A stretch of DNA of 64,000 nucleotides from a virus (lineage: Duplodnaviria > Heunggongvirae > Uroviricota > Caudoviricetes), in the IMG/VR virus record IMGVR_UViG_2519899835_000003. One strand, written 5' to 3'. The notes under the pieces are model-generated. The model saw only the letters and a list, made by a program, of their open reading frames with translations, was not told the origin of the DNA and made no database searches. Shown here in pieces: positions 25,878 to 28,523 of this stretch; the stretch's first letter is position 1, and every line of letters begins with the position of its first letter. A program made the position numbers and the translations under genes.

Positions 25878-28523
25878 TTATTTCTCTTTAAGGTCGCTAA
25901 TCTCTTTACGCAGATTTTTTATTCCTTCAACTAACAGTGCAATAACACCATTATAATTTAATCGAAATCTCTCTTCACCAGATATGATATCTGTATCAGA
26001 TGTAACTAACTCTGGTTGAGCCTTTAACGCATCCTGTGCAAATAATCCCACAGATTGTTGCCAACTGCCATCAGCATTCTGTATTTCATACAAATAACCC
26101 GTTAGCAAGTCAAGCTTCTCCAGACAATTATCTATTCGTATTGCATTTCGCTTGTTGCGTTTATCCGAACGGATCTGAACATCGTTAAATGAGCCGTTTC
26201 CGGTCACCGTCAAATTGCCATTAATACCACCATTAAAAGTTTGTGCCTGAGTCCATGTATTGGCAGTAGTAAGCAGTTCTGTTCCTTGCCCGGGGGCTCC
26301 TGTGTCTCCCTTCGGTCCCTGCGGCCCTTCCGGACCTGCTGGACCTGCTACTCCCGGATCACCTTTATCGCCTTTCGGCCCCGGCGCACCTGCCGGACCT
26401 GCTGGTCCAGCCACCCCCGGATCGCCTTTGTCACCTTTTGGCCCCTGTGCGCCTGCCGGGCCTGCGGCTCCCGTATCCCCTTTCGGTCCCTGTGGCCCCG
26501 CCGGACCTGCTGGTCCAGCCACCCCCGGATCGCCTTTGTCACCTTTTGGTCCCTGTGCGCCTGCCGGGCCTGCAGCTCCCGTATCCCCTTTAGGTCCCTG
26601 CGGTCCTGCCGGGCCTGCGGCTCCCGTATCCCCTTTAGGTCCCTGCGGTCCTGCCGGGCCTGCGGCTCCCGTATCCCCTTTAGGTCCCTGCGGTCCTGCC
26701 GGGCCTGCGGCTCCCGTATCCCCTTTCGGTCCCTGTGGCCCCGCCGGACCTGCTGGTCCAGCCACCCCCGGATCGCCTTTGTCACCTTTTGGCCCCTGTG
26801 CGCCTGCCGGGCCTGCGGCTCCCGTATCCCCTTTCGGTCCCTGTGGCCCCGCCGGACCTGCTGGTCCAGCCACCCCCGGATCGCCTTTGTCACCTTTTGG
26901 CCCCTGTGCGCCTGCCGGGCCTGCGGCTCCCGTATCCCCTTTCGGTCCCTGTGGCCCCGCCGGACCTGCTGGTCCAGCCACCCCCGGATCGCCTTTGTCA
27001 CCTTTTGGCCCCTGTGCGCCTGCCGGGCCTGCGGCTCCCGTATCCCCTTTCGGTCCCTGTGGCCCCGCCGGACCTGCTGGTCCAGCCACCCCCGGATCGC
27101 CTTTGTCACCTTTTGGCCCCTGTGCGCCTGCCGGGCCTGCGGCTCCCGTATCCCCTTTCGGTCCCTGTGGGCCTGCCGGACCCGTATCGCCCTTGTCTCC
27201 CTTCGGGCCGGGAACGCCACCACCTGCAGCAACCTCTTCTGCCTTCTGTCTCGCCGCCTTGGCCTCATCCATTGCCGCCTTCACAGCCTTCGACGTGGCA
27301 GCCTTTGTTTCGTCATTACTGGCAGTATCACTACTTAGCTGCACAATTCCCTTCTGTGCCGTCGTCGCGTCCACCACATTTGCTGCGCTGCCCGCCGGAC
27401 CAGGCTCCCCGCGGGGGCCCTGCGGCCCAGCTTCGCCTCGTTCACCTTTCGGACCTGCCGGACCTGTCGCACCGGCATCTCCTTTCGGTCCCTGCGGCCC
27501 CGCCGGGCCTCTCTCTCCTGCAGGTCCGCGTAGCCCCTGCTCTCCCTGAGGCCCTCGTTCTCCCGGCTCACCTTTTTCACCTGCGGGACCGGCTGGTCCG
27601 GTGTCACCTTTAGGTCCTGCATCACCTTTCGGCCCGGGTGGTCCCCCCGGGTCTCCGGGGGCTCCTTTTTCACCTCTGGCCCCGGTTTCACCTCGTGGAC
27701 CAGCAGGCCCCTGAATCCCCCGCTCTCCTTGCGGCCCCACCGGTCCTGTTTCACCGCGTGGTCCTTGTGCGCCTTGTGGACCTGTTTCTCCACGAGGGCC
27801 TGCATCACCTTTCGGTCCGGTATCACCTTTAGGGCCTCTGGCATTCTCTGCCATACGCCTGGCCTCTTCAGCACTAACCGTAGCAGCCTCAGCACGTTTA
27901 AGAACGTCTCCGGCGGCCTCATGAGCCACTCTGGCGGTTTCAGCATGTTGTCTGGCATCATTCGCGTCTGCTGCCGCGGCCTTTTCAGACTCGCATGCCC
28001 GGGTCGCCGCTTCTGCAGCTTCACTGGCTTTTTGTCCGGCTTCAGCCGCCCTGCTGGTTGCCGTCTTTGCACTGTCAGATGCACTCTTCGCACTGGCTGC
28101 TGCACTGTCTTTTGACTGTGTGGCCTGAGTGTTTTTTGTCGCCGTGTCTTCATTCAGGCGACGAATAGTGGCAAGGTCATCAGCCACATTATTCTGTATC
28201 TGCCGGAAATCTGTCAGCAGTTCTCCGGGTATGCTAACCTCAACAAGACTGCGGCGTAACAGCATATTGAGCGTCACCGTACTTTCGGTCCCCTCAATAC
28301 GCACACGTCCGTAGACAGCAGTCTTCCCTTTCACCGTCACCGAAACCGCATACTCCCCCGGATCCATCGTCATTCCGTAATATCCACCTTCACGGGTCAC
28401 TGCCGACGCACTGGTGCCGCTGAGCGCATCCGGTGAAACTGTCAGCGCCGTCAGGGTAATATTTGCTCCTGATATCGCCTCACCATCAGGAGATTTCAGC
28501 GTCCCCGAAACAACAACACTCAC
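25878..28523 (-). CDS. Collagen-like tail fibre with C-terminal intramolecular chaperone (peptidase S74-like) domain
   Basis: Two Gly-X-Y blocks (aa ~229-378 and ~436-746); C-terminal ~130 aa resemble self-cleaving chaperone domains of phage fibres. Confidence 0.85.
26286..27218 (-). repeat. Tandem 99-bp (33-codon) in-frame repeats encoding [33 protein letters not shown], about 8 copies
   Basis: Near-identical repeats in DNA and protein within the tail fibre gene. Confidence 0.85.

Follow-up and report, generated by a model that had tools for sequence, protein, structure and literature searches.

Length alleles of a 108-bp tandem-repeat array in the collagen-like tail-fibre gene of an Escherichia coli prophage

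Introduction

The IMG/VR virus record IMGVR_UViG_2519899835_000003 (Caudoviricetes), a stretch of 64,000 nucleotides (nt) that is called the window here, carries a tail-fibre gene in which a long block of collagen-like Gly-X-Y triplets is encoded by a tandem-repeat array. The locus raises the question of how such an array is built, whether its length differs between related prophages, and what a difference in length could mean for the fibre. We found that otherwise near-identical genes carry short or long arrays and that the short ones can be derived from the long one by single in-frame deletions. The region very probably encodes the lateral tail fibre of a non-stx E. coli prophage of the 933W/Sp5/phi24B type, a trimeric fibre on a short tail, and we hold this view with its explanation of the array included.

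Collagen-like proteins of E. coli prophages (EPcl) were defined by Ghosh et al. in 2012, and their collagen domains form real triple helices and trimers (PMC3368898). A collagen circular dichroism spectrum and cooperative melting were shown for rEPclA only (PMC3368898), and the PCoil segment was shown to be a trimeric coiled coil (Ghosh et al., PMC3368898). In the same study the lengths of the collagen (Col) domains varied between prophages in multiples of three residues, the longest being 322 amino acids (aa) in Stx2-86 gp21 (PMC3368898). Variable collagen-domain length in E. coli prophage fibres is already known from that work (Ghosh 2012), and the window holds a new, extreme allele of a known kind of protein.

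Results

The fibre gene and its 108-bp repeat

The tail-fibre gene is a single open reading frame (ORF) with a GTG start, and its parts are as follows.

25878-28523, minus strand: lateral tail-fibre gene, 881 aa (ORF list, Pfam, PHROG, and the annotation 'tail fiber protein' in relatives)
28137-28523, minus strand: N-terminal virion-attachment domain, aa 1-129, PfN / CarboxypepD_reg-like (Pfam PF13620 and PF08400)
27837-28136, minus strand: putative PCoil-like coiled coil, Ala/Ser-rich (by analogy with PCoil of Ghosh et al., PMC3368898)
27384-27836, minus strand: collagen block 1, aa 230-295 and 297-380, 22+28 Gly-X-Y triplets (triplet scan)
27219-27383, minus strand: non-collagen linker, aa 381-435, with a Phage_fiber_2 (Pf2) repeat (PF03406, aa 387-428, E 1.8e-14)
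26283-27218, minus strand: collagen block 2, aa 436-747, 104 unbroken Gly-X-Y triplets (triplet scan and Tandem Repeats Finder, TRF)
26166-26282, minus strand: predicted mature distal tip, aa 748-786, up to the putative cleavage site Ser786/Asp787 (the C-terminal part aligns to S16 gp37)
25881-26165, minus strand: C-terminal intramolecular chaperone (Peptidase_S74), predicted to be released after trimer folding (PF13884; alignment to 6F45_A)

The two blocks of Gly-X-Y triplets had been placed at 27390-27839 and 26286-27218 in a preliminary description of the locus. Both blocks are real, and these limits lie within 3-6 nt of those given above. At the DNA level block 2 is strongly tandem-repetitive, with TRF scores of 830-963, far above chance. 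Block 1 gave no TRF row, and its Gly-X-Y triplets are of unique sequence with no DNA tandem repeat; one G-G-P-P-G break splits its 22 and 28 triplets, and the triplet count is the same in six related records (L001-L004, L006, L007).

Block 2 had been described as about eight nearly identical 99-bp units. The total length implied by that estimate agrees with the near-identical core of the array (26391-27173, 783 bp), but the period does not: exact self-matches within the gene reach 368 nt at a period of 108, and 7 nt at most at a period of 99. The real unit is a compound of 108 bp, made of an A part (45 bp) and a B part (63 bp), and the array reads A'(AB)4 AAA (AB)2 B' A''. Six AB units are thus near-identical to each other, and besides them the array has three more A units, which represent a separate codon variant, a single divergent B' and a degenerate unit at either end. 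Because every unit length is a multiple of 9 bp, an exchange between units keeps both the reading frame and the Gly register. Two parts of the array stand out.

26695-27170, minus strand: perfectly 108-bp-periodic core, 4.4 exact copies (the 368-nt self-match)
26562-26696, minus strand: three A units of a distinct codon variant (A2; GGACCGCAGGGACCTAAA...), common to the IMG/VR alleles L009/L010, with 0-1 mismatch to the L010 units, diagnostic single-nucleotide polymorphisms (SNPs) included

Relatives carry arrays of different length

A query made of the flanks only, with the array left out, was compared with 5426 complete E. coli genomes, and both flanks were required to be at least 99.8% identical. 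Twenty-three genomes passed, and between the flanks 17 of them have an array of 198 bp and six an array of 306 bp, compared with 936 bp in the window. The genomes with the 198-bp allele are O104:H4 wherever a serotype is stated and include the 2009EL and 2011 strains, and those with the 306-bp allele are Korean wherever an origin is recorded. In the protein the 198-bp allele reads A' AB A'' and the 306-bp allele A' ABAB A'', giving 22 and 34 triplets compared with 104 in the window. These results bear out the earlier expectation that array length varies between related prophages; repeat copy number across relatives is not invariant.

We then considered how the three alleles could be related. 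Outside the array, the window gene and that of strain NCCP15648 differ at 1 of 1710 positions (1 in 1305 nt on one flank, none in 405 nt on the other). One in-frame deletion of 630 bp turns the window gene into the NCCP15648/FORC allele with a single mismatch in 2016 nt, and its breakpoints fall inside 11-12 nt that are common to an A unit and A''.

26311-26951, minus strand: widest extent of the deleted 630-bp segment (from 26311-26940 to 26322-26951; single-deletion model, 11-12 nt of microhomology)

Likewise, one deletion of 738 bp yields the O104:H4 allele with 10 mismatches, which equal the separately counted point differences outside the array plus one. The 198-bp and 306-bp alleles are themselves one 108-bp step apart. 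Expansion of the 306-bp allele to the window array in one step was also considered and was rejected, since A-variant units and a B' occur in the window array and in neither of the short alleles. The same A-variant and B' units recur, in the same order and with the same diagnostic SNPs, in the independent alleles L009/L010 and L005, suggesting that the long allele is ancestral-like and itself a mosaic.

More distant alleles have arrays of 30, 54, 90 and 108 aa (10, 18, 30 and 36 triplets). The window array is unusually long: 45 database representatives share its tip motif, and no Gly-X-Y run in them exceeds 42 triplets, compared with 104 in the window, while fibres that share its N-terminus total at most 77 triplets, compared with 154. 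In three of the related sequences (L008 at 2779-4824, P0008 and P0009), block 1 is fused straight to block-2 units and the Pf2 joint is gone; in L008 a block-1 segment is also duplicated. These fusions are evidence for recombination between non-allelic Gly-X-Y tracts. In another group (L005 at 1013-3604, and P0002-P0007), an insert of about 240 aa that is not collagen (aa 401-639 in L005) lies between the collagen blocks, with two Pf2-like motifs flanking it.

Domains of the fibre, its chaperone and the adjacent adhesin

Pfam recognised five domains in the 881-aa protein: Collagen (E 1.4e-69, 7 stretches), Phage_fiber_2, Peptidase_S74, PF13620 and PF08400. PHROG tail-fibre families match it end to end, and the gene is annotated as a tail fibre, with the same start position, in every related record. 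The end of the gene that encodes the N-terminus (query nt 1955-2646, about aa 1-230, coiled coil included) is 93-97% identical in DNA to the fibre genes of Stx1 and Stx2 phages. Pfam, PHROG, the annotation of relatives and the published Sp5 and phi24B homologues together support the identity as a collagen-like tail fibre.

The Gly-X-Y tracts are long and unbroken (22, 28 and 104 triplets) and have a composition that stabilises a collagen helix without hydroxyproline: Pro occupies 41-50% of X positions over the tracts (50% in block 2), and charged residues make up 17-25%, comparable with the EPclP values discussed in PMC3368898. Candidate trimerisation modules flank the collagen, the Ala/Ser-rich PCoil-like segment upstream and the S74 chaperone downstream, and both are known trimerisers in homologues. 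The blocks are predicted to form triple helices.

The Peptidase_S74 match (PF13884) covers aa 786-841 at the C-terminus, with 33.4 bits against a curated cutoff of 22, and the profile starts exactly at an S-D motif. The C-terminal 114 aa of the fibre (query aa 767-880) align to S16 gp37 (PDB 6F45_A, E 2.3e-11), with S786-D787-K-R-N-K791 of the fibre set against S-D-R-R-I-K of S16 gp37. As established by work on the endoNF chaperone domain, an S74 chaperone is recognised by a Ser-Asp scissile site and a Lys five residues downstream, which form a Ser-Lys dyad. The fibre has both, and it would be expected to cleave itself at Ser786/Asp787.

The next gene encodes a candidate for the receptor-binding tip.

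25250-25795, minus strand: putative tip adhesin of 181 aa, with an attachment domain of the Gp38 type at its N-terminus (PF21721 Gp38_N, E 1.1e-19, profile 1-40 of 40; phrog_1121)

The match of this protein to phrog_1121, 'tail fiber adhesin', is full-length (E 5.7e-66), and relatives have at this position a gene annotated 'receptor recognizing protein Gp38'. In three relatives (L005-L007) the 'Gp38' is another one, of 170 aa, and the chaperone sequence that goes with it differs too. When the 181-aa protein was compared with the PDB, only chance-level matches were obtained, none at E up to 1, 6F45 included, and the polyglycine sandwich was not recognised. As judged by these comparisons, the receptor-binding part is of a different type from that of S16 gp38. 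The gp37 trimer of S16 carries a single gp38 as its cap, attached by the N-terminal domain of gp38 (PMC6851490); by analogy, the 181-aa adhesin may cap the tip of the window fibre.

The prophage around the fibre gene

The window starts in ynfF and then enters the prophage. In the annotation of NCCP15648 the gene next to ynfF (a 4Fe-4S protein, presumably ynfG) is truncated (window 1-2500). Since the prophage abuts ynfF and the neighbouring gene is truncated in that annotation, its attachment site appears to lie in the ynfFG region. The prophage encodes a 2783-aa LPD-domain protein, Lom, a tail-tip fibre, an internal virion protein, cor, the 181-aa Gp38_N protein, the fibre and an SU10-type adaptor, followed by an N4-gp56-type capsid protein, a P22-type portal protein, terminase, lysis genes, a SASA esterase and Q. 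Within this capsid/portal/terminase module the fibre gene stands between the adhesin gene and the adaptor gene, with which it overlaps by 4 bp.

28520-29170, minus strand: tail adaptor gene upstream of the fibre gene (SU10 adaptor / DUF6682), on whose product the fibre N-terminus is likely to dock (PF24175, E 3.7e-32)

Over 24 kb the structural module, which is that of 933W/Sp5/phi24B, has 97% identity with a prophage of O104:H4 strains, and the ends of the window are 100% identical to the Korean strain NCCP15648. The possibility that the window is strain NCCP15648 itself was rejected: about 200 mismatches separate the two in the interior, and only NCCP15648 has an IS1-associated replacement. 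There, an IS1A element (L011 20496-21467) takes the place of a 1.6-kb lom/tail-tip fibre stretch that is intact in the window (20496-22139: the 5' end of lom, a 205-aa ORF and the 3' end of the tail-tip fibre gene).

Several other genes of the prophage were noted. The 2783-aa protein (window 8049-16400, minus strand) has LPD38, LPD5, LPD1 and MuF_C domains, and its 2793-aa counterpart, Sp5 ORF80, has been reported to be essential for tail formation, with an unknown role (PMC5155283). A toxin gene of the Hok/Gef family is annotated in the collinear NCCP15648 record at window ~19661-19801 (minus strand), within the tail-gene block, and cor lies just downstream of the adhesin gene (~25010-25237). 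Like that of Stx phages, the late region (39780-45900) encodes lysozyme, holin, Q and the SASA-family esterase (41203-43113). Between the esterase ORF and Q or the next upstream ORFs there is no ORF of the size of stxA (~320 aa), and ARAGORN found no tRNA genes in the whole window. By its gene content, the prophage appears to be related to the Stx phages but to lack stx.

Discussion

What could a change in array length do to the fibre? We propose the following order of assembly. The N-terminal domain of the fibre would dock on the tail adaptor ring, and would be followed by the alpha-helical coiled coil, collagen helix 1, the short Pf2 joint, collagen helix 2 and a small beta-helical tip. The S74 chaperone would nucleate folding of the trimer and then cut itself off at Ser786/Asp787, after which the Gp38_N adhesin would cap the exposed tip and recognise the receptor, as in long tail fibres of the T2/S16 type. 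Unequal recombination or replication slippage between units would alter the length of the shaft while the frame and the Gly-X-Y register are kept, and the O104:H4 and Korean-lineage alleles would be single-step contractions, to 22 and 34 triplets, of an expanded mosaic allele.

The rise of a collagen helix is 0.286 nm per residue. At this value helix 1 comes to ~43 nm, and helix 2 to ~89 nm in the window compared with ~29 and ~19 nm in the relatives. By analogy with BclA, array length would set the physical reach of the fibre. The furthest-reaching interpretation is that the array is an evolvable length-tuner as well as a recombination junction, that the 104-triplet allele is ancestral-like with the O104:H4 and Korean copies as independent single-step contractions, and that a helix 2 of ~19-89 nm adaptively sets the reach of the Gp38-type adhesin through O-antigen or capsule. 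We offer this interpretation tentatively and regard it, taken as a whole, as rather doubtful. If adaptive length tuning did occur, repeat number would be a host-range determinant of 933W-like phages.

A number of results weigh against the proposed explanation of the fibre and its array. The array is invariant within lineages (17/17 and 6/6 genomes) and varies only between them, so it does not act as a fast switch; the copy-number variation within a clone that defines a contingency or phase-variable locus was not found, and the array is not hypermutable on short timescales. The preliminary description had held the array to be prone to change in length, which is true between lineages, where clean in-frame deletions lie between units, but not on short timescales, where each clone has one length. 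The authors of the phi24B structure consider the lateral fibre too flexible to pass on a trigger signal, and phi24B fibres fold back toward the capsid (bioRxiv 10.64898/2026.04.10.717836), which makes the functional effect of extra length uncertain. The C-terminal 140 aa of the adhesin have no match among solved structures. Finally, the long allele was not sighted a second time. The exact 881-aa protein was not found in a collection of 15 billion proteins, a 76-nt junction specific to the window (B-A-A2) had no match in metagenome or viral contigs, and in the complete E. coli genomes listed no array of these units exceeds ~290 bp. In this last search, made with the array only, coverage is inflated because many query repeats fall on one short subject array, and subject spans were used instead. 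The 936-bp allele therefore rests on a single assembly.

An alternative explanation is that array length is selectively neutral: length would change by drift as a by-product of recombination-prone DNA, and the fibre would work alike above some minimum length. Alleles of 10 to 104 triplets all keep the frame and the flanking domains intact, some even do without the Pf2 joint (the L008, P0008 and P0009 fusions), suggesting a high tolerance, and length is fixed within clonal lineages. The phi24B lateral fibre is, in addition, thought not to trigger DNA release. Against neutrality stands the physical effect that would be expected by analogy with BclA, as far as the citation of Sylvestre 2003 in PMC10470788 describes it. 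Weighing these points, we give neutrality somewhat less than an even chance of being correct.

It could also be argued that the 936-bp array is an assembly artefact, over-expanded or chimerically joined from paralogous collagen arrays, and that the true allele is 306 bp. Besides the single sighting, the ends of the prophage are 100% identical to NCCP15648, a carrier of the 306-bp allele. Most proteins with the same tip and chaperone are annotated 'partial', some of their clusters having 50-260 member sequences. A search with the composite of linker, tip and chaperone returned mostly such truncated 'partial' proteins and was unusable for a length distribution. These many partial homologues suggest that draft assemblies routinely break inside collagen-coding repeats, which speaks for an artefact; by the same token, long arrays are probably under-represented in short-read data.

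Several features of the window nevertheless oppose an artefact. The array is in frame throughout. Independent natural alleles contain the A2 variants and B', which the 306-bp allele does not have, in the same relative order and with the same diagnostic SNPs. The A2 unit alone was found in 2 IMG/VR contigs and had no match in GTDB representative genomes. Both flanks are of the same allele type (1/1305 and 0/405 mismatches), and a chimera would have to switch twice. A single deletion in the long allele gives each short one exactly, down to the hybrid A/A'' unit that such a junction should have, and the window differs from NCCP15648 elsewhere (148+24+24 mismatches and the IS1-associated replacement). 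We consider an artefact improbable and conclude that the window array is probably real and ancestral-like.

A third suggestion is that the protein does not belong to the virion and serves the bacterium as a collagen-like surface adhesin, or as a lysogenic-conversion factor, much like the streptococcal Scl proteins. It finds a hint in one database entry of this architecture (P0052), whose source name is 'collagen-like surface-anchored protein SclE'. However, the domains are of the phage-fibre type (a prophage tail-fibre N-terminus and a self-cleaving S74 C-terminus) and not of the surface-anchored type, the gene lies in a tail morphogenesis block with adaptor and adhesin genes on either side, and homologues have been localised to phage tails. 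We regard this suggestion as very improbable.

The remaining candidates are long ORFs inside the fibre gene, which the preliminary description had rightly taken to be spurious. There are five, of 272-429 aa, in other frames or on the other strand.

26241-27338, 26260-27549 and 26735-27613, plus strand: three spurious low-complexity ORFs of 292-429 aa (ORF list; stop-free frames)
26348-27268 and 27335-28153, minus strand: two spurious out-of-frame ORFs (ORF list)

G+C is 70.6% in the array and 50.2% in the window, and stop codons are missing from three of the six frames that run across the array; high-G+C coding of the form GGN-CCN-NNN leaves these frames open and so accounts for the phantom ORFs. 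There is practically no chance that one of them (e.g. 26260-27549, plus strand, 429 aa) is a real gene: length alone speaks for it, whereas they lie wholly within the fibre gene, translate to low-complexity repeats of Pro, Ala, Gly, Cys and Arg, would shrink along with the array in relatives, and are annotated in no related record.

The locus is of interest in several respects. These fibres belong to a type of phage that spreads Shiga toxin genes, and altered adsorption bears on the spread of those genes. The natural series of 22, 34 and 104 triplets in otherwise near-identical genes is well suited to tests of shaft length against adsorption or host range. For annotation, such arrays are a hazard, as they break or collapse in short-read assemblies and yield phantom ORFs of 270-430 aa. 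Finally, an S16/T2-like tip and chaperone together with a Gp38_N adhesin on a podovirus fibre is a good example of modules being exchanged across phage morphotypes.

Comparison with known systems

The closest described protein in domain order is EPclB (933W Z1483 / Sp5 ECs1228). Both have the order PfN, PCoil, Col with a conserved G-x-P-G-G-P-x-G break, Pf2 and Col, in the context of a prophage tail fibre. Unlike EPclB, the window fibre ends in the self-cleaving S74 chaperone and has no PF06820 (PfC) match in Pfam, and its second Col is 312 aa compared with 114 aa, near the 322 aa of Stx2-86 gp21. By its sequence, the window fibre should work like EPclB, and it is no strict member of that group since PfC is lacking. 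It may instead belong to the 'PfC2'/EPclC* class of the same paper. The 2012 study of Ghosh et al. does not treat a 108-bp DNA repeat, single-step deletions, the chaperone or the adhesin (PMC3368898).

Two homologues have been placed on virions. Sp5 ORF67 is essential and was labelled on the tail by immuno-electron microscopy (PMC5155283), and phi24B gp61 forms six lateral trimers that are held on the gp62 adaptor ring by their N-terminal domains and have a long, flexible collagen-like shaft (bioRxiv 10.64898/2026.04.10.717836). The window gene resembles the genes of these fibres in the end that encodes attachment and the coiled coil (DNA identity of 93-97% with the fibre genes of Stx phages), in its position after an adaptor gene, and in a collagen-like shaft with a short non-collagen interruption. 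It differs from them in having another distal tip module, a separate Gp38_N adhesin gene and a much longer second collagen segment.

The long tail fibre tip of S16/T2 (PDB 6F45) shares with the window a gp37-like C-terminus with a Ser-Asp site and a next gene that opens with a full Gp38_N. Unlike that system, the window virion would be of the podovirus type and not a T-even myovirus, its shaft is collagen and not the beta-structured rods of gp34-37, and its adhesin body matches no solved structure, the chains of 6F45 included.

BclA of Bacillus anthracis is like the window fibre in that tandem repeats encode its Gly-X-Y triplets, in a number specific to the strain, and according to Sylvestre 2003, as cited in PMC10470788, the length of its collagen region sets the length of the exosporium filaments. 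BclA is a spore-surface glycoprotein with unrelated flanking domains, and the relation of length to filament was measured in BclA and would apply to the window fibre by analogy. Set beside these systems, the window fibre does not overturn current understanding and is a variation of a fairly ordinary kind.

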